The position numbers and the translations under genes are program-made. From an uncultured bacterium (GTDB lineage: Bacteria > Desulfobacterota > Deferrimicrobia > J040): DNA of 64,000 bases. Of this stretch, positions 6,089 through 13,892 are shown piece after piece (the first letter of the stretch is position 1; each line of letters starts with the position of its first letter). The stretch covers positions 47,795 through 111,794 of the forward strand of contig CAYSCN010000003.1 in NCBI GenBank assembly GCA_964429585.1, read 5' to 3'. A model generated the notes under the pieces. The model saw nothing but the letters and a program-made list of their open reading frames with translations. It was not told the origin of the DNA and did not search any database.

Positions 6089-6274
6089 TCAACCTGCGGC
6101 CTTGGTTTTTTTCCTCTTGTCGTCTTTGTTGCTCTTTTCCGTTCTGTTTCTGATGACAACGTCGTCGACTACTTCACCGCATATCACGCATCGCCACGCG
6201 TAAAACACTTCCAGCATATCCTGATATCTCTCGTATATCATGAGTCCGTTGCATCTCGGACACTTCATTTTCAT
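6089..6274 (-). CDS. Small zinc-ribbon protein (61 aa, CPRC…CVICG) with a Lys-rich tail
   Basis: The ORF has a good RBS on the minus strand (reverse complement of 6277-6288 = AAGGGAGGGA) before the ATG. Two CxxC pairs lie about 22 aa apart, with a basic C-terminus KDDKRKKTK. Codon usage resembles neighbouring genes. It is co-directional with, and upstream of, the ATPase. Confidence 0.55.
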   Translation of the reverse strand: MKMKCPRCNGLMIYERYQDMLEVFYAWRCVICGEVVDDVVIRNRTEKSNKDDKRKKTKAAG

Positions 6275-6462
6275 CCCTCCCTTTTCGTTTCAATATTAGA
6301 TGATACGGTTATTCTCCTGGTTTCATCGTGTTGTTTTCAAAATATTACATTATATTACCGCTCATGTCATCTCCTTTGTTACAAACGCTTTGAATGTTTC
6401 GCTTTTTCCCCGGCGAGTTTTTGGAGTATACTTTTGGGAAGTTTTACCTGGAGGGTTTTGTG

Positions 6463-7698
6463 ATGAGACATCGCGGCATGTGGGTCGTTTTCTTCGTTGT
6501 CACGTCCGTCGTTCTCGTTTTCCATTCGAGGGCTTTTGCCGGGGATCCGGGGAAGCTTTTTCAGGAGGCCAGGGAACGAATAGCCGTGAAGGATTTCGAG
6601 GGAGCTCTGTCTGTTTACGAGGAAATACTCGATTCTTATCCGGATGACCTGGATGCCCTGCTGGGTAAAGCAAGGGTTCTCTCGTGGATGGGTAGATACG
6701 AGGAGGCGAGGGCCGTTTACCGGGATGCATTGAGGGTCGACCCTGAAAACGTGGATGCCGAGCTCGGGATAGCGGACACTTTCGCCTGGCAGTGGGATTA
6801 TGACAGGGCGATTTCGATGGCGCGTAAGCTGGAAAGGAGGAACCCCAGGGACAGGAATGTGCTCATAAGGCTTGCGAGATACAACCTCTGGGCAGGGAAC
6901 AGGGAAGAGGCAATTTATTACGCGGAAAGAGTGAAAAGAGATTATCCCGATGACCAGGAAGCCGACGATATAATTAGAAAAGCCGGGAGACTATACAGAT
7001 ACAGGGCTCTCGTGGGTTACGAATTTCTGAATATAACGAACGACGTGGACGGTCACAGTCTGTATGGGTTTCTCGACGTTGTTGAGGGAAAAGGGAAGAG
7101 GTTTTTCGGTGGGGTGGAGATCATCGACAGGTTCGATGAGCAGGAGGGCAGGATATCCGGAGGGGGGTCGTTCAAGGTGAGCGACAAGCTCGAGGTGTCC
7201 GTCGAGGCCGGCATCGCGCCTGGAGCAGACGTCCTTCCCCAATTTTCCGGCTGGGTGGAGCTGGCGTCTCCAGCTCTCCCTTCGTGGGTCGTCTACGGGT
7301 CTTTTTCCACTCAGATTTATTCCGACGCAGACGTATACAATTTTTCCGTGGCAGGAGAGTATTTCCCTTATGGTTACCTTTCTCTGTTCACCAGGGTTTC
7401 CGTGTCGAGAACTGAATTCGACCTTGGGAGAAGCTCTACCGATGGAAGCATCCTTTTCAGGACGACGTATTACGCAAATGAGGACGATGAATTTCACGTT
7501 TACGTGGGCTACGGGAACGAAGCATACAAGTCGGAAACCATCGATCTTGTGGGGGACATAGAAGCGAAGATTATAGGGGCAGGGGGGACTTACTACGTAT
7601 CCCCCTCTTTGGGGTTGTCACCGGGGTTCGAGTTTCAGGACAGAAGCGGTGGCACGCGGTATTACACATTTACCCTCGATCTACTTTACCGGTGGTGA
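6463..7698 (+). CDS. Outer-membrane protein: signal peptide plus TPR repeats plus C-terminal beta-barrel (possibly YaiO-like)
   Basis: ATG 6463 follows RBS GGAGGG. Signal peptide MRHRGMWVVFFVVTSVVLVFHSRAFA. About 170 aa of TPR-like helical repeats (ALSVYEEILDSYPDD…, ARAVYRDALRVDPEN…). The C-terminal ~230 aa show alternating hydrophobic beta-strand patterns with Gly/aromatic residues and a terminal aromatic (…FTLDLLYRW), typical of OM beta-barrels. Confidence 0.7.
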   Translation: MRHRGMWVVFFVVTSVVLVFHSRAFAGDPGKLFQEARERIAVKDFEGALSVYEEILDSYPDDLDALLGKARVLSWMGRYEEARAVYRDALRVDPENVDAELGIADTFAWQWDYDRAISMARKLERRNPRDRNVLIRLARYNLWAGNREEAIYYAERVKRDYPDDQEADDIIRKAGRLYRYRALVGYEFLNITNDVDGHSLYGFLDVVEGKGKRFFGGVEIIDRFDEQEGRISGGGSFKVSDKLEVSVEAGIAPGADVLPQFSGWVELASPALPSWVVYGSFSTQIYSDADVYNFSVAGEYFPYGYLSLFTRVSVSRTEFDLGRSSTDGSILFRTTYYANEDDEFHVYVGYGNEAYKSETIDLVGDIEAKIIGAGGTYYVSPSLGLSPGFEFQDRSGGTRYYTFTLDLLYRW

Positions 7699-7753: not shown

Positions 7754-8101
7754 GTGCGAGTTCTCGTAATTGAGGACAACGCCGAGGTCAGGGAAATACT
7801 GAAGGAGATGGTTCAGCTTCTCGGGGCCGAGGCGGTTGTAGCTGAAAACGGATTGACAGGGCTCGAGCTCGTCAGGACAACTAAATTCGATCTGGTTTTC
7901 ACTGATCTCAGGATGCCGGGACTTAAGGGGACTCAGCTAGTAGAAGCGTTGAAGAAGGCGGTTCCAGATGTTCCGCTGGTTGTCGTTTCGGGTTCACCTC
8001 AGGACCTCAATGAGGAAGAGGTGAGGGACAAGGTGTTCCGGATAGTTAGAAAGCCATTTTCGATAAGGCAGATAGGGGAAATTATCGATTCTTTCCGGTA
8101 A
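7754..8101 (+). CDS. Single-domain response regulator (CheY-like receiver)
   Basis: 115 aa, GTG start after RBS GGAGGGGG. Canonical receiver residues are present: acidic pair VLVIEDN, phospho-acceptor Asp in LVFTDLRMPG, VVVSGS and VRKPF (Lys-Pro). There is no output domain. Confidence 0.85.
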   Translation: MRVLVIEDNAEVREILKEMVQLLGAEAVVAENGLTGLELVRTTKFDLVFTDLRMPGLKGTQLVEALKKAVPDVPLVVVSGSPQDLNEEEVRDKVFRIVRKPFSIRQIGEIIDSFR

Positions 8102-8127: not shown

Positions 8128-9186
8128 CTATCTCCAGCACTTGTTGCAGTATTTACAATTGACCTCAGTGCATATCGAAACGTTCTTGGCCGCGTACGCC
8201 TTTCCGGAATTGGCGTGAGACCTTTTCACGCATCCGTGGGGAAGATGAACGGATGGGATCAAGACGAGAAGCCCTATGAGTGCGAGCGAAGACGCGAGTG
8301 TCAGGATCTGTCCTTTGAAAGAGGCAGCTTTTTTTTCAGAGCTCGGGTTCCTGTCTTCTTCCAGGAGGGCCCGAACTCTTCTGCTTACTTCTTTGCTGGA
8401 AAAGTACGCGGATTGAGGAGCTTCTCCGCTGCTGTTCAGGCGGGCTGTCTTTACGATGGATTCTGCCAGAACCAGGGGATCGGCCCCCATTTTGACCGCG
8501 TACTGGTCGGCGGCCAGTTCCGTCATCAGCCTGAATCGTTCGAAGAGTTCATTTCTTCTGGGGATGAAGATCAGAGGTCTCAGTATGCTCCAGAGAAACA
8601 GTTTCTTGAGAGGGTGTCTGTATTTGACGTGTCCCGCTTCGTGGAGGATGACTGTCTCGAGTTCCTCTTCTGATAGAGAACTGGCAAGAGCTTCCGATAC
8701 GTAAATTTTCCCTTCTATAAGCCCGGTGGAGAATGCGAAGACTTTGTTTGAGGGAACCAGAATGACGGAGTGTCCCGAGATCCTTTTTTCCTGCCCCCTT
8801 GCCACGATCACGGGGGTTTCCTTCTCTACTTTGCAGATCGAATGCACACCTGAGAAAAAGTTCTTCAAGAATCCGACTATTCCATATGGAATCAGGAAGA
8901 GAATGAACAGGCTTATGGCAGCTTTGGTGATGTTTCCCAGAGAGGAAATTAGCGTCTGCGCCGCGTGGCAAAGGTGGATAGCGATCTTGGAAGACAGTAT
9001 CGCCGCGACTATCCCGTCCCACCTGGAATAGAGAATAGATGCCAGAAAAGAAAATGAGAGAGCCAGCGTAAGGACAGTTGTGAGGAAGAGTTTTCGACTC
9101 TCTCTCTCGTAGTCAGTCTTCCGATTTCCCCTTCTTTTGCTCAATGAGTTTCTCCAGCAGCTCCAGATCTTCCGGATCCTCAGCAA
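8128..9186 (-). CDS. M56-family (BlaR1/MecR1-like) membrane zinc metallopeptidase lacking a penicillin-binding sensor domain, with a Cys/His-rich C-terminal tail
   Basis: HEXXH zinc motif ILHEAGHVKYRH, flanking TM helices and the downstream ELAADQYAV region match the M56 protease domain. After a final TM helix (ILTLASSLALIGLLVLIPSV) the protein ends in HLPHGCVKRSHANSGKAYAAKNVSICTEVNCKYCNKCWR. The true start is uncertain because the longest ORF overlaps the upstream repressor gene by about 70 nt. Confidence 0.8.
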   Translation of the reverse strand: MLRIRKIWSCWRNSLSKRRGNRKTDYERESRKLFLTTVLTLALSFSFLASILYSRWDGIVAAILSSKIAIHLCHAAQTLISSLGNITKAAISLFILFLIPYGIVGFLKNFFSGVHSICKVEKETPVIVARGQEKRISGHSVILVPSNKVFAFSTGLIEGKIYVSEALASSLSEEELETVILHEAGHVKYRHPLKKLFLWSILRPLIFIPRRNELFERFRLMTELAADQYAVKMGADPLVLAESIVKTARLNSSGEAPQSAYFSSKEVSRRVRALLEEDRNPSSEKKAASFKGQILTLASSLALIGLLVLIPSVHLPHGCVKRSHANSGKAYAAKNVSICTEVNCKYCNKCWR

Positions 9187-9547
9187 CCTTTTCGATGAAG
9201 GCGGCTATCGCTGTTTTACCGTCCAGTTCTAGAAGTCCCTCTACCACTTTCTGCGACACGACGCGTTTGTACTCTTCTTCGGTCAGAGTGGGAGCATACC
9301 TGTAAATTTTACCCTCTTTTTCTTTAGTAAGAAGATTTTTTTCCACGAGTCGATTCATGACCGTGATGACAGTGGTGTAGGCGATCTCCTTTTCCCTCGA
9401 GAGCTCCTCGTGAACTCTCTTGACGGTTGCAGAGCCCATCCTCCACAGGACATCCATGATTTCCTGTTCCAGGTCTCCGAAAGTTTGCCCGATTCCCTTT
9501 CTACCAGGACGAAAGATGAATTTGATTTTTTCTCTCAATGATGGCAT
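9113..9547 (-). CDS. BlaI/MecI/CopY-family (penicillinase-repressor type) winged-helix transcriptional repressor
   Basis: The protein starts MPSLREK… at ATG 9547 after RBS GGAGG. Its N-terminal region (EQEIMDVLWRMGSATVKRVHEEL…YTTVITVMNRLVEKNLL) matches the Penicillinase_R DNA-binding fold. It has a C-terminal dimerisation helix and no CopY-type CxC…CxC metal site. It lies immediately upstream of the M56 peptidase gene. Confidence 0.85.
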   Translation of the reverse strand: MPSLREKIKFIFRPGRKGIGQTFGDLEQEIMDVLWRMGSATVKRVHEELSREKEIAYTTVITVMNRLVEKNLLTKEKEGKIYRYAPTLTEEEYKRVVSQKVVEGLLELDGKTAIAAFIEKVAEDPEDLELLEKLIEQKKGKSED

Positions 9548-9645
9548 GGTCAATTTTCCTCCTTGAGTTTGATTCATATTATATTTTACCTGTCGTAGAA
9601 ACACAACTTAAAATCAGGAGTTTTCGGCTTGGGGCACAATTAACT

Positions 9646-9675
9646 TTGACAGTCCGTAGAAAACGAGTGTAGAAT
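9646..9675 (+). promoter_or_regulatory. Candidate sigma70-type promoter (TTGACA-18 nt-TAGAAT) for the Met-rich protein gene, with GTAGAA repeat elements
   Basis: TTGACA at 9646-9651 and TAGAAT at 9670-9675, about 30 nt upstream of RBS AAGGAGGA/ATG 9707. Hexamer GTAGAA occurs at 9595-9600, 9656-9661 and 9669-9674 in the divergent intergenic region. The two promoter-proximal copies could form the repressor operator (speculative). Confidence 0.35.
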
Positions 9676-9706
9676 TTAACCAGAAATCACTCAAGGAGGA
9701 GCAACT

Positions 9707-10255
9707 ATGGAAGGAAAGAAGATAGCTGGTGTGTTTACGGTTTTTGTGGTGGCGCTTGCAATGGTATTTTCCTTTGGAATCTCCAATGCCATGATGGGAG
9801 GCCATTCTGGAAAGGGTATGATGGGTTCTGGAGGAAGCGGCAACCAGGGGATGATGGGAAAAAGCGGCGGCAAGATGATGGGAAAAAGTGGTAAGGGTCA
9901 CGGCGGAATGATGGGCGGCATGAAGGTCTTCGAGAGGGAAGCTTTCGGGATGAAGCTCGAAGGAAACATAGTGGATGTGAGAGCGCAGATGAAGAAACTG
10001 GGCAGGAACGCTCCAAGTGGAATAACTCACCACATCATGATCACTCCTTCCAGGCCATTCCCCAAGGGGACGAAGGCGACTCTCATCGTGAAGTCCCCAA
10101 GTGGCGAGAAGAAAGAGGTGGGACTCATGGCAATGGGCAATCACATGGGAGCCGATCTCTACCTCCCGGACCCGGGGAAATACGTATTCGATTGTCAGAT
10201 AACCTCGGGCGGTGAAAGCACGGAGTTTCAGTTCAGCTACCAGGTCGAGAAGTAA
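9707..10255 (+). CDS. Secreted Met/Gly-rich repeat protein with a C-terminal beta-rich His/Met-containing domain (putative periplasmic metal-binding, possibly copper)
   Basis: RBS AAGGAGGA. Signal peptide MEGKKIAGVFTVFVVALAMVFSFGISNA. Five MMG repeats follow (MMGGHSGKG MMGSGGSGNQG MMGKSGGK MMGKSGKGHGG MMGGM). Then a ~100-aa domain with HHIM and MAMGNHMG motifs. It is divergent from the repressor/M56 operon. Confidence 0.6.
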   Translation: MEGKKIAGVFTVFVVALAMVFSFGISNAMMGGHSGKGMMGSGGSGNQGMMGKSGGKMMGKSGKGHGGMMGGMKVFEREAFGMKLEGNIVDVRAQMKKLGRNAPSGITHHIMITPSRPFPKGTKATLIVKSPSGEKKEVGLMAMGNHMGADLYLPDPGKYVFDCQITSGGESTEFQFSYQVEK

Positions 10256-10282: not shown

Positions 10283-10303
10283 CCGGGGGAATCTTTCCCC
10301 CGG
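10283..10303 (+). terminator. Possible stem-loop (9-bp GC-rich stem) downstream of the Met-rich protein gene
   Basis: CCGGGGGAA tct TTCCCCCGG lies directly after the stop codon. The U-tract is poor (cccttcatcctttattt), so this is a weak intrinsic-terminator call. Confidence 0.3.
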
Positions 10304-10391
10304 CCCTTCATCCTTTATTTATCCTTGAAATTTCGGGAAATTCGCTATAATTTAAGCTGACACGGGTTTCGAAAACGCCGGAGGGCGTTCT

Positions 10392-11273
10392 TTGCGCAGG
10401 AAAGTTACATTTTTCGTCATATCCGGGGATGAGGGACGGGTCAGGAAGATAACCGTCTCTCTTTTTCTGATAAGGTTTCTGGTGTTTTCCTTCATAGTTT
10501 TTTTCTCTGCTGTCTGCTTCATGATATACGATTACAGGGGAGCGGTTCGGCAGAAGATAGAACTGATGAAATTGAGGGAGATCGCCTCGAAACAGAAGCT
10601 CATGCTTTCGTTCTTCGAGGACAAGTTTCGTCGTGTGGAGTCTGAGGTCTCCAGGCTGAGGGTTATAGACAGCAGGATTAAAAAACTCATACGCATTCAG
10701 GAGCCCCGTAAGAGATCTCAGAAAGCCTACATTGGTGGTAAGGAATACGAGGATGGAGAGCTTTTCCTCACGGAAAACAGGCTTGTCAGGTTGAGGATCG
10801 AGGAGCTGGAAAAGGGCATCCTCGTGGACCTCACCAAGCTGGAAGGAATAAAGGATATGCTCGAGACGAGACTCGAGGTTCTGGAGTCGATGCCCACGAG
10901 GTGGCCCGTGAGAGGGGTGATCTCGTCGGGGTTTGGTGCGAGAATTTCCCCGTTTACCAGGAGGACCGTTTTTCACAGGGGGCTCGACATTCAGGCGCCG
11001 ATGGGAGCTGAGGTCAGAGCTGCGGGATCCGGAAGGGTAGTTAGGAGCAGTTTCGATCCAACTTACGGAAACATAGTGGTGATCGATCACGGGAGCGGCT
11101 ACAGAACGATCTACGCGCACATGTCGGAGAACCTCGTCAAACTTGGAGATTACGTGGAGAGAGGACAGGTCATAGGAAGAGTCGGAACGACCGGGAGGAG
11201 CACAGGCCCTCACCTCCACTTCGAAATTCGCGTCAATGGAGTCCCCACGAATCCCATACGATATCTTGGATAA
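10392..11273 (+). CDS. M23-family (LytM-type) peptidoglycan endopeptidase with N-terminal membrane anchor and coiled-coil
   Basis: C-terminal M23 domain with HxxxD (FHRGLDI) and HxH (GPHLHFEIR) zinc ligands, plus GYRTIYAHM. There is an N-terminal TM helix and a long coiled-coil (EnvC/NlpD-like architecture). It lies upstream of secA. Confidence 0.85.
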   Translation: MRRKVTFFVISGDEGRVRKITVSLFLIRFLVFSFIVFFSAVCFMIYDYRGAVRQKIELMKLREIASKQKLMLSFFEDKFRRVESEVSRLRVIDSRIKKLIRIQEPRKRSQKAYIGGKEYEDGELFLTENRLVRLRIEELEKGILVDLTKLEGIKDMLETRLEVLESMPTRWPVRGVISSGFGARISPFTRRTVFHRGLDIQAPMGAEVRAAGSGRVVRSSFDPTYGNIVVIDHGSGYRTIYAHMSENLVKLGDYVERGQVIGRVGTTGRSTGPHLHFEIRVNGVPTNPIRYLG

Positions 11274-11366
11274 TTCAGCCACCTATGCAGTAGAATGGAA
11301 TAGTGGTTCTCCTCGTGTTCTGGCGGATGTGAGGGGGACGAGATTTCATCGGTTCAGGAGCGAAGT

Positions 11367-13892
11367 ATGTTGAAGTGGATCGTAAAAAAGGTCATAGGCA
11401 CGAAGAACGAGAGGGAGCTCAAACGGCTGGCGCCCGTCGTGGAGAGGATAAACAGCTTCGAGGAGGAGATGAAAAAGCTTCCCGACCATCGCCTCGCGGC
11501 GTACACGGGAGAGTTCAAGGAGAGGATCGAGAAAGGAGAATCCCTCGACGATTTGCTTCCGGAAGCGTTCGCGGTGGTCAGGGAGGTATCCAGGCGTGTC
11601 CTCGGGATGAGGCATTTCGACGTGCAGCTGATAGGTGGAATCGTCCTCCACGAAGGGAAGATAGCCGAAATGAAGACCGGTGAAGGTAAGACGCTGGTTG
11701 CCACACTTCCCGTTTACCTCAATGCCCTCACCGGAAGAGGGGTTCACGTTGTCACGGTCAACGACTACCTGGCGAAGCGTGACGCGGAGTGGATGGGACC
11801 GATATACAGGTTTCTGGGACTGGAAGTGGGCGTGATCGTTCACGGGATGGATGACGAAGAGAGGAAGAAAGCATACGCGGCGGACGTGACTTACGGCACG
11901 AACAACGAATTCGGGTTCGATTATTTGAGGGACAACATGAAGTATTCCCTCGATGACATGGTTCAGAGAGAGCTTCACTACGCCATCGTGGACGAGGTGG
12001 ACTCCATCCTGATAGACGAGGCAAGGACTCCTCTCATCATATCTGGTCCTTCCGAGGAATCCACCGACAAGTATTACAGAGCGAATGCCGTGATCGTCCA
12101 CCTGAAGAAAGAAAGGGATTACACGATAGACGAGAAAGCGAGAACGGTGGTTCTCACTGAAGAGGGCGTGGCGCGGGTTGAAAGACTGCTCGGAGTCGAC
12201 AACCTGTACGACCCGAAGAACATGGATCTTCTGCACGCCGTCAATCAGGCGCTCAAGGCGCACACTCTCTTCAAGAAGGACGTGGATTACGTGGTCAAAG
12301 ACGGAGAGGTGATAATCGTCGACGAGTTCACGGGAAGGCTGATGCCAGGCCGCAGATACAGCGACGGTCTCCATCAGGCGCTGGAGGCGAAAGAGGGAGT
12401 GAAGATAGAGAGTGAAAATCAGACACTCGCTTCCATCACCTTCCAGAACTACTTCAGAATGTATGAGAAGCTCGCCGGCATGACGGGAACCGCCGATACC
12501 GAGGCGGTGGAGTTCAAGGAAATCTACAACCTCGACGTGGTCGTGGTACCCACCAACAAACCGATGATTCGAATAGATTACCCCGATGTGGTCTACAGGA
12601 CCGAGAGGGAAAAATTCCGTGCCGTTGTGGAAGAGATAAAGGAGCTTCACAGGATCGGCAGACCGGTGCTGGTTGGAACCATATCCATAGAGAAATCGGA
12701 ACAGCTGAGCAAGATGCTCAAAAGAGAGGGTATCCCGCACAACGTTCTCAACGCCAAGCATCACGAGAAAGAAGCGCAGATAATCGCCGAAGCGGGTCAG
12801 AAGGGGAAGGTCACGATTGCGACCAACATGGCGGGAAGAGGTGTTGACATAGTGCTTGGTGAAGGGGTCAAGGAACTGGGCGGGTTGCACATCATAGGAA
12901 CGGAGAGGCACGAGAGCAGGAGGATAGACAATCAGTTGAGAGGAAGGGCAGGGAGGCAGGGAGACCCGGGCTCCAGCAGGTTCTTCCTTTCCCTCGAGGA
13001 CGACCTGCTCCGTATATTCGGTGCCGAAAAAGTTTCTTCGCTCATGGAGAAACTGGGCATGGAAGAGGGGCAGCCCATAGAGCACAAGATGGTATCCAGG
13101 GCGATAGAAAACGCCCAGAGCAAGGTCGAGGCTCACAATTTCGAAATCAGGAAGCACCTGCTCGAGTACGACGACGTGATGAACAAACAAAGAACCGTCA
13201 TCTACGACCTCAGGAAAGAGATAATGGGTAGCGAAAACCTTAAAGAGACGGTTCTCGACATGGCTTATGAAGTTGTGGATGAGCTCGTGGAAACGTATAC
13301 GGACGAGAAGCTCTACCCGGAACAGTGGGACCTCAAGGGGCTGTCCGAATATTACCGGATGTTGTTTGGAGTTTCCCCGGAAGTCACCGAAGAACAGATA
13401 ACCGAGATGACGAGGGAAGAGCTCAGAGAGAAGCTCTTCGAGCAGGCGGTGAAGGTTTACGAGGAAAGGGAAGCTACGTTCGGTGAAGAGATAATCAGAT
13501 ACCTGGAGAGGGTGCTTGTCCTCTCGACCATCGATGCGCTCTGGAAGGATCATCTCCTCGCGATGGATCACCTGAAAGAGGGGATAGGGCTGCGCGGTTA
13601 CGGTCAGATGGATCCGTTGAAGGAGTATCAGAGAGAAGGGTTCGAGATGTTCCAGAACCTCGTATACAGGATAAAGGAGGAGAGCCTCAAGAAACTTTAC
13701 AACGTGAGGATTCAAACGGAAGAGGACGTTTCCTCCATATCCCTTTCCGGTCCCAGGAGGATGGTGATGAACAGGGGCGAGGCGGGGGCGGCTGCCAGGA
13801 CCGTGAAACGGAAGGGTAAGAAGGTCGGGCGGAACGACCCGTGTCCTTGCGGAAGCGGCAGAAAATACAAGAAATGCTGCGGAGCGAATTGA
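11367..13892 (+). CDS. secA: Preprotein translocase ATPase SecA
   Basis: 841 aa. Walker A KTGEGKT, DEAD-like DEVD, and characteristic SecA blocks ([10 protein letters not shown]…, GRQGDPGSS). C-terminal zinc-binding motif [14 protein letters not shown]. Confidence 0.97.

Follow-up and report, generated by a model that had tools for sequence, protein, structure and literature searches.

What does a small, exported, methionine-rich protein of an uncultured bacterium bind, and what switches its gene on? The question is raised by positions 9707-10255 of a 64-kb stretch of DNA (contig CAYSCN010000003.1, positions 47,795 to 111,794; this whole stretch is called the window, and its numbering is used below). 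The gene found there, hereafter the target, lies divergent from the gene of a BlaI-like repressor, which in turn overlaps the gene of a BlaR-like protease. The target probably encodes an exported protein of roughly 15 kDa that binds soft metals, with Cu(I)/Ag(I) as the most likely specificity, and we favor, with moderate confidence, a periplasmic Cu/Ag-type metal-binding protein under BlaI/BlaR-type control. Periplasmic handling of copper and silver is well described in Proteobacteria (CusF, CopC/PcoC, PcoE/SilE and CopM); to our knowledge, little has been described for anaerobic Desulfobacterota and the uncultured lineages related to them. While the functional class of periplasmic Met/His copper proteins is well known, the family reported here is new: it is uncurated, has motifs of its own, appears to set CusF-like ligand chemistry on a CopC/P19-like fold, and is placed after a resistance-nodulation-division (RND) pump gene in several relatives. 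New in the lineage of the window is the apparent coupling to a Cys-rich BlaI/BlaR switch that lacks the penicillin-binding (PBP) domain.

The open reading frame (ORF) starts with ATG and encodes 182 amino acids (aa) plus a stop codon, and its protein is called identically on public contigs. The features of the gene are as follows (pLDDT, predicted local distance difference test).

9707..10255, plus strand: whole ORF, exported Met/His-rich protein (ORF list and translation)
9707..9790, plus strand: predicted signal peptide, residues 1-28, with MEGKK, hydrophobic residues 6-24 and an SNA cleavage motif (read from sequence)
9791..9922, plus strand: disordered Gly/Met/Lys arm, residues 29-72, with five MMG units (composition; pLDDT ~40)
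9923..10252, plus strand: predicted immunoglobulin (Ig)-like beta-sandwich domain, residues 73-182
10025..10039, plus strand: T107-H108-H109-I110-M111, the T-H-H-x-M motif, near-universal across the family
10124..10156, plus strand: L140-M141-A-M143-G-N-H146-M147-G148-A-D150, the M-x-M..G-x-G-A-D motif

The preliminary description of this DNA had proposed a signal peptide cleaved after SNA. A KK n-region, a hydrophobic stretch at residues 6-24 and S-N-A at -3/-1 fit the usual rules, with a Kyte-Doolittle maximum of 2.39 over residues 2-32 and a predicted helix at residues 5-24. Cleavage itself is suggested by the -3/-1 rule only, and since the h-region is long at 19 residues, the N-terminus may be an uncleaved anchor. 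The remainder of the protein is extracytoplasmic in either case.

The MMG units start at residues 29, 38, 49, 57 and 68, exactly as in the repeat string quoted earlier, and M72 follows the last of them. The stretch is indeed rich in Gly, Met and Lys (19 Gly, 11 Met, 5 Ser, 5 Lys, 2 His and no acidic residues), with a length of 44 aa in place of the ~55 aa first given. Methionine makes up 25% of the arm compared to 2.5% in neighboring housekeeping genes, which is far beyond chance, and Tandem Repeats Finder detected no tandem repeat at the DNA level under the MMG units. The two motifs pointed out in the domain, HHIM (H108-H109-I-M111) and MAMGNHMG (M141-G148), are both present.

Library scans matched the target to no Pfam and no NCBIfam model, in line with the earlier reluctance to assign the folded domain to CopC, YtkA or a similar family, and phmmer against sequences of the Protein Data Bank (PDB) gave weak filamin matches only. 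A word-indexed search of 5.8 billion proteins with the domain returned two relatives only, at 58-60% identity. The exhaustive hidden Markov model (HMM) search of 1.84 billion cluster representatives gave 207 matches, most of them secreted, 150-190 aa long and organized like the target, and a profile search gave 490 clusters. The clusters are named 'hypothetical' except for one UniRef 'YtkA-like domain-containing protein', no precomputed Pfam domain is attached to any of them, and the taxon names, available for a few clusters, all point to Desulfobacterota. No relative was found among GTDB species genomes scanned with the close-orthologue alignment; a metagenome scan with the subfamily alignment found two loci. 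Large multi-repeat proteins, namely Rib-domain and other adhesins, were rejected as relatives, as they score via 5-19 repeated partial matches. On these searches, the target appears to be a member of a family that had not been curated before and that comprises about 500 clusters, mostly from Desulfobacterota.

Conservation within this family is concentrated at few positions. In target numbering, D90, H108, H109, P131, M143, G148, D150, G157, Y159 and F176 are near-invariant. Across 197 relatives the dominant motif is THH[LMFIV]M, with M-x-M..G-x-G-A-D 41-47 residues downstream of it. The stretch that joins their signal peptide to the domain runs to 21 aa at the median, and Met plus His account for a median of 26% of its residues. 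H146 and C163 are confined to the subfamily of the target. The preliminary description had named a repeat region variable in orthologues without metal linkage as a point that would speak against it; the arm does vary in sequence and length among orthologues, and a Met/His-rich linker is nonetheless found family-wide. The linker thus seems to be a family trait, with the conserved determinants located in the folded domain. One orthologue (locus L096, 7812-8336, plus strand) has THHFE instead of THHFM, i.e. Glu at position 111, the position that a low-confidence alignment described below sets opposite FetP Glu46, which hints that position 111 is perhaps a tunable metal ligand.

Several curated families are approached below their thresholds. 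PF10634 (P19) matches 10 of 33 relatives at 13.7-17.6 bits (cut-off 21) and does not match the target. PF13115 (YtkA) matches six of the 33 weakly (best E 1.9e-5; relative P0050 reaches 19.8 bits against a cut-off of 25.9) and finds neither the target nor the relative named 'YtkA-like' in UniRef. PF04234 (CopC) matches two of the 33 at E ~0.02, one of them at 16.4 bits (cut-off 23.3), and again not the target. DUF6941 gave a further sub-threshold match among family members.

Structure prediction by AlphaFold2 (AF2) with three sequences placed the domain above a pLDDT of 90 and the arm at about 40; with 29 domain sequences the mean pLDDT was 96.3 and the predicted template modeling score 0.86. 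Both models give an eight-strand Ig-like sandwich plus one short helix, so that the beta-rich domain of ~100 aa expected at first is predicted as all-beta with 110 aa. Foldseek placed CopC (5ICU, E 7.7e-4), FtrA-P19, and apo and Ag-bound CrdA at the top ranks. The fold neighbors and their comparison scores are listed below.

Helicobacter pylori CrdA: 11.8 / 11.7
FtrA-P19 (101-102 aligned residues, 18% identity): 11.1 / 11.2
DUF4426: 10.7 / 11.0
CBM56: 10.8
HftA: 10.8
Tp34: 10.5 / 10.6
Generic cytokine-receptor, FN3 and filamin folds: at most 9.8

According to these rankings of predicted models, the closest solved structures are periplasmic copper proteins, with a modest margin over generic Ig folds. 

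The profile-profile comparison proposed in the preliminary description was run with hhalign against FetP and a rhizobial P19 sequence taken from plasmid records. The family profile aligned with FetP/P19 at 76% probability (E 2.3e-5) over the C-terminal half. The family M-x-M..H falls on F-M-P-M-vasd-G-P-H of FetP, with M143 on M90 and H146 on H97, and hmmsearch against PDB sequences gave the same correspondence. When the alignment was forced to extend, H109 came to lie opposite FetP H44 and M111 opposite E46, at low confidence. The copper ligands of FetP/P19 we take to be H44, M90 and H97, together with H127 from the partner subunit; the target domain lacks the loop insertion of FetP as well as the C-terminal segment with H127. 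From the alignments and conservation we infer a candidate metal site composed of H109, M111, M141 and M143, joined by H146 and M147 in the subfamily of the target.

Genomic context was analyzed for eight distant relatives, whose domains share 24-39% identity with that of the target. Five of them (P0020, P0035, P0025, P0022 and P0187) are encoded immediately after an RND pump gene, and P0012 two genes after one; for another, a short contig shows a neighboring cytochrome c gene. Genes for small cytochromes c (Cytochrom_C/CBB3) were noted beside the family members at L089 766-1290 and L103 7496-7996, an adjacency that may be a coincidence or may point to a role in periplasmic redox or in the delivery of copper.

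On contigs that are long enough (L087, L092 and L103), the operon comprises an OEP gene, a CusB-like adaptor with an HMBD domain, and the pump, with the family gene as the last gene of the efflux operon. The adaptors match CusB best, and TIGR00914 (CusA/CzcA) matches the L092 pump at 1208 bits. Aligned with Escherichia coli CusA, the pumps of L092 and L103 show 55% identity and retain the Met triad of M573, M623 and M672, most relay methionines, D405 and E625. No CusF was found among the genes called in the relatives' RND operons, and the sole small ORF there (L103) is not CusF-like. By its gene neighborhood, the family acts like a periplasmic partner to RND pumps for Cu(I)/Ag(I), and since these cusCBA-type operons lack CusF, the family protein is probably their periplasmic metallochaperone. 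Together with the fold neighbors and the family motifs, this context supports the earlier interpretation of the target as a periplasmic Met/His metal sponge or chaperone.

CusF folds as an OB-type barrel, whereas the target is predicted as an Ig-like sandwich, has no sequence similarity to CusF and no Pfam match, and carries a long Met-rich arm that CusF lacks. Both are small exported proteins. The candidate ligand chemistry of the target is His plus Met-x-Met: H109 and M141-x-M143 are conserved in the target family, and this candidate set resembles the Met2His site used by CusF (PMC9182242). The gene of CusF lies between cusC and cusB, while family genes lie last in cusCBA-type operons and the target itself stands outside any cus operon.

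The gene of CrdA, a periplasmic protein rich in Met, sits with those of an RND pump (crdB-czcB-czcA), an arrangement mirrored by the family genes beside RND pumps, and CrdA shares with CopC the Met loop motif MxxMPGM (PMC9182242). Judged from the model, the target has the beta-sandwich fold of CrdA (9LL2/9LL4) and of Methylosinus trichosporium CopC (5ICU), at 12-14% identity; it has neither a PF04234 match nor an MxxMPGM motif. In contrast to CrdA, which has no His, the target family has an invariant H-H pair. The Cu(II) site that CopC builds with its N-terminal His is unavailable in the target because the 44-aa arm precedes the domain.

The target arm can be likened to PcoE, a Met-rich periplasmic sponge (PMC9182242). 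Like PcoE/SilE it is disordered and consists of 25% Met plus His, and could give rapid, low-affinity sequestration. PcoE/SilE have no folded domain and no sequence relationship to the target, in which the arm is a poorly conserved appendage of a conserved domain. YtkA/CtaK has an Ig-like E-set extracytoplasmic domain implicated in copper delivery (PMC13344008). The target is likewise Ig-like and extracytoplasmic; unlike this group (PF13115; Bacillus subtilis CtaK, YcnJ), it is no lipoprotein and shows no linkage to cytochrome oxidase genes.

Two genes on the minus strand upstream of the target offer a candidate for its control.

9113..9547, minus strand: BlaI/Penicillinase_R-family repressor, 144 aa, divergent from the target (PF03965; start as called publicly)
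8128..9144, minus strand: BlaR1/PetP-like membrane M48/M56 metalloprotease, 338 aa (Pfam and motif conservation)

The repressor matches PF03965 at 116.2 bits (cut-off 22.6) over positions 2-115 of 115, and TIGR02698 (CopY_TcrY) at 74.6 bits, below the equivalog cut-off of 121.95. None of the four orthologous repressors contains Cys, and direct copper sensing by the repressor in the manner of CopY, whose C-terminal metal site is CxCx4CxC, was therefore rejected.

The gene of the protease overlaps that of the repressor. Its product matches PF01435 at 48 bits (cut-off 20.3) and PF05569 at 30.7 bits, just below the cut-off of 31, and has an invariant HEAGH and three strong hydrophobic segments plus a marginal one. 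A conserved HLCH segment lies between the first two strong hydrophobic segments, and the protein ends ~40 residues past the last one in a tail with a conserved Cys followed by S-x-C-T-x3-C-x2-C-x2-C, i.e. five conserved Cys. There is no PBP domain (NF000326 scores 20.7 bits against a cut-off of 400), which led us to reject classical beta-lactam sensing. Instead, the HLCH segment and the Cys tail are candidates for a metal or redox sensor that replaces the PBP domain. A homologue search with the protease returned essentially only itself; orthologues occur in the syntenic loci L083 (4511-5554, minus strand) and L096 (6129-7166, minus strand).

The gene order tetratricopeptide repeat (TPR) protein, BlaR-like protease, BlaI-like repressor, target, M23 peptidase, SecA, ArgJ recurs in L083 and L096/L097. 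The part from BlaR to M23 is kept in L001, and the target adjoins M23 in L002 and L084. Wherever a contig reaches upstream (L001, L083, L085, L096/L097), BlaI/BlaR-like genes are present, and target identity across the syntenic loci ranges from 45% to 59%. The SecA of the window is at most 68% identical to that of any GTDB species representative. At the 80 nearest SecA loci from GTDB species, the three genes for protease, repressor and target were not found together with SecA at any, while several loci from Desulfobacterota-like genomes (e.g. L003, L006, L011, L028 and L063) keep M23-SecA(-ArgJ), with M23 about 1 kb upstream of the SecA match. The distribution indicates that the three genes form a lineage-specific unit inserted upstream of a housekeeping block; as M23-SecA-ArgJ exists without them in related genomes, the adjacency to M23 looks positional and not functional.

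Putative operators were detected as inverted repeats with N5 spacing by aligning four intergenic regions, and share the joint core KAC-N5-GTA. Control elements around the target are given below.

9585..9600, either strand: putative operator site 1, TTTAC-CTGTC-GTAGAA, core TAC-N5-GTA (conservation)
9646..9661, either strand: putative operator site 2, TTGAC-AGTCC-GTAGAA, core GAC-N5-GTA (conservation)
9646..9675, plus strand: predicted sigma-70-type target promoter, -35 TTGACA at 9646-9651, 18-nt spacer, -10 TAGAAT at 9670-9675 (11/12 matches)
10283..10303, plus strand: GC-rich hairpin with a 9-bp stem, then a U-rich stretch, 28 nt past the stop codon (z = -2.4)

The first site fills the 17-nt spacer of the minus-strand promoter of the repressor as read from the sequence (-10 TATAAT at 9583-9578, -35 TTGTGT at 9606-9601), and its TAC-N5-GTA with the adjacent TATAAT/TATACT is invariant in four loci. 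The second overlaps the -35 element and spacer of the target promoter, and GAC-N5-GTA is found there in all four syntenic loci; an equivalent -35 TTGACA occurs in L001, L083 and L096. Within the 64 kb, the extended operator motif has exact matches at these two sites only. The layout is that expected if a BlaI-like protein represses both transcription units. A ribosome-binding site, AAGGAGG, lies at 9693-9699, 7 nt before the target ATG. The hairpin past the stop codon was missed by a consensus scan; an equivalent 11-bp hairpin occurs in L001 and none in L083 or L096. It is likely a terminator, and its position after the stop suggests that the target transcript is monocistronic.

The pair resembles, by the published description, PetRP of Synechocystis, a copper-activated BlaI/BlaR-type pair without a PBP domain, in which PetR has the core site GAC-N5-GTC and is degraded by PetP in response to copper (bioRxiv 10.1101/2020.07.31.226407). 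Both pairs comprise a BlaI-family gene, an overlapping gene for a PBP-less M48/M56 HExxH protease, and inverted-repeat operators with N5 spacing. The half-sites differ (GAC-N5-GTC compared to KAC-N5-GTA here), as do the sensors, with two loop methionines in PetP and the candidate HLCH segment and C-x4-C-x2-C-x2-C tail here. PetR targets plastocyanin and cytochrome c6, in contrast to a putative metal-binding protein in a different phylum here. We know of no metal-sensing BlaI/BlaR switch besides cyanobacterial PetRP, and of none that controls a metal-resistance effector.

In the mechanism that we propose, a Sec signal peptide would take the protein to the periplasm, where the Ig-like sandwich would bind one Cu(I) or Ag(I) via the conserved His and Met side chains. 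H109 and M111 would lie on one strand and M141 and M143 on the neighboring strand, with H146 and M147 of the subfamily in the following loop, giving a CusF-like His+Met2 chemistry on a CopC/P19-like scaffold. The flexible Gly/Met arm may collect or buffer ions at low affinity, passing them on to this site or sequestering additional ones, as in PcoE. The standalone gene would be held off by the divergent BlaI-type repressor at the KAC-N5-GTA operators over both promoters. On a signal, probably the metal itself, the BlaR1/PetP-like protease with its Cys/His motifs would cleave the repressor and so induce the protein. That the protease senses metal directly is a tentative proposal which we regard as rather doubtful. 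Similarly speculative is the broader picture of an undescribed self-contained module for envelope metal stress, in which HLCH and the tail would let the protease respond directly to Cu(I), Ag(I) or a different thiophilic metal, cleave the Cys-free repressor, and induce a periplasmic His/Met protein of a new family that stands in for CusF, without relation in fold, across Desulfobacterota. Of this picture, the sequence analysis establishes the gene and its architecture, the family motifs, the fold neighbors, the synteny and the operator conservation; metal binding, the identity of the metal, the ligands, repression and the inducer are inferences from them.

Several observations weigh against a Cu/Ag-binding protein under BlaI/BlaR-type control. 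The window contains no ORF long enough for a CusA-type pump or a copper ATPase, so the linkage to cus genes comes only from the relatives with 24-39% identity over the domain, and one of the eight (in Desulfonema ishimotonii) has no metal context. Neither the target nor its relatives match any curated metal-binding family above threshold, the relatives reaching 13-20 bits where Pfam cut-offs are 21-26. The N-terminal half of the P19 alignment is of low confidence, H146 is not conserved beyond the subfamily, and the Cys-rich tail of the protease might just as well respond to redox state or to some other thiophilic metal. The tail would suit Zn, Cd or Hg, and the near-invariant D90 and D150 could be hard-metal ligands; moreover, TIGR00914 spans CzcA as well as CusA, and the closest solved relatives detectable by sequence, P19, FetP, FtrA and Tp34, serve copper-dependent iron uptake. 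A different metal (Zn, Cd, Co, Ni or Hg), or a P19-like copper-loaded component of iron uptake, is nevertheless unlikely. The pumps beside two relatives retain the CusA-specific Met triad, the arm is rich in Met without acidic residues, and the conserved side chains are His and Met, with Met at the position that we take to be Glu46 in P19. P19, FetP, FtrA, Tp34 and HftA (PF10634) are partners of FTR1-type iron permeases, and E. coli fetP directly follows its permease gene; no FTR1-type permease gene was found beside the target or any relative examined, and a P19-type role in iron uptake was judged unlikely for this reason.

An envelope protein against oxidative or redox stress appears still less probable. 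In that case the arm, a quarter of which is Met, would be a sacrificial oxidant sink, and the five conserved Cys and HLCH of the protease could form a thiol switch that senses redox state by disulfide formation, which might suit an organism that appears related to anaerobic Desulfobacterota. However, this leaves unexplained the conserved domain with T-H-H-x-M and M-x-M, the fold neighbors among copper proteins, and the relatives located after CusA-type pump genes, and no gene for an Msr-type methionine sulfoxide reductase is adjacent. Least probable, with only a slim chance, is a structural or adhesive role in the envelope for a generic Ig-like protein whose His and Met would be incidental and whose BlaI/BlaR pair would answer a cell-wall signal in keeping with the M23 neighbor. 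The His and Met positions are, on the contrary, the most conserved of the family, the matches to Rib domains arise only from repeated partial matches, the BlaR-like protein has no PBP domain, and the M23 block occurs without the three genes in related genomes.

If the Cu/Ag-binding role is correct, hundreds of 'hypothetical proteins' beside cusCBA operons could be annotated. The family of about 500 clusters appears to fill the role of CusF on a different fold, and its conserved T-H-H-x-M and M-x-M provide a site open to testing. The locus suggests a second, independent metal-sensing use of the BlaI/BlaR proteolytic switch after cyanobacterial PetRP; if this is confirmed, the many orphan PBP-less BlaR-like proteases would gain a working model in which Cys/His motifs act as the ligand sensor.

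Other genes and ORFs were noted around the three genes. Long stop-free antisense ORFs at 11346-13715, 10308-11282 and 9614-10144 (all minus strand), opposite SecA, M23 and the target, have no homology support; the strong purine and GC skew of the coding strand explains them best, so they are not taken to be genes. The gene for the TPR protein is conserved immediately beyond the BlaR-like gene (window 6394-7698, plus strand; L083 3028-4305; L096 4742-6031). Its 434-aa product, with 47-48% identity over three lineages, has N-terminal TPR repeats, an outer-membrane beta-barrel-like C-terminus (...LYRW) and a weak TPR_Slam match. Between the TPR and BlaR-like genes, the window alone has a gene for a 115-aa stand-alone CheY-like receiver (7754-8101, plus strand), absent at the syntenic L083 and L096. 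A 61-aa ORF (6089-6274, minus strand) between the genes for a T2SSE-type ATPase and the TPR protein carries a zinc-ribbon-like pair of CxxC motifs, CPRC ... CVIC, and a Lys-rich tail.

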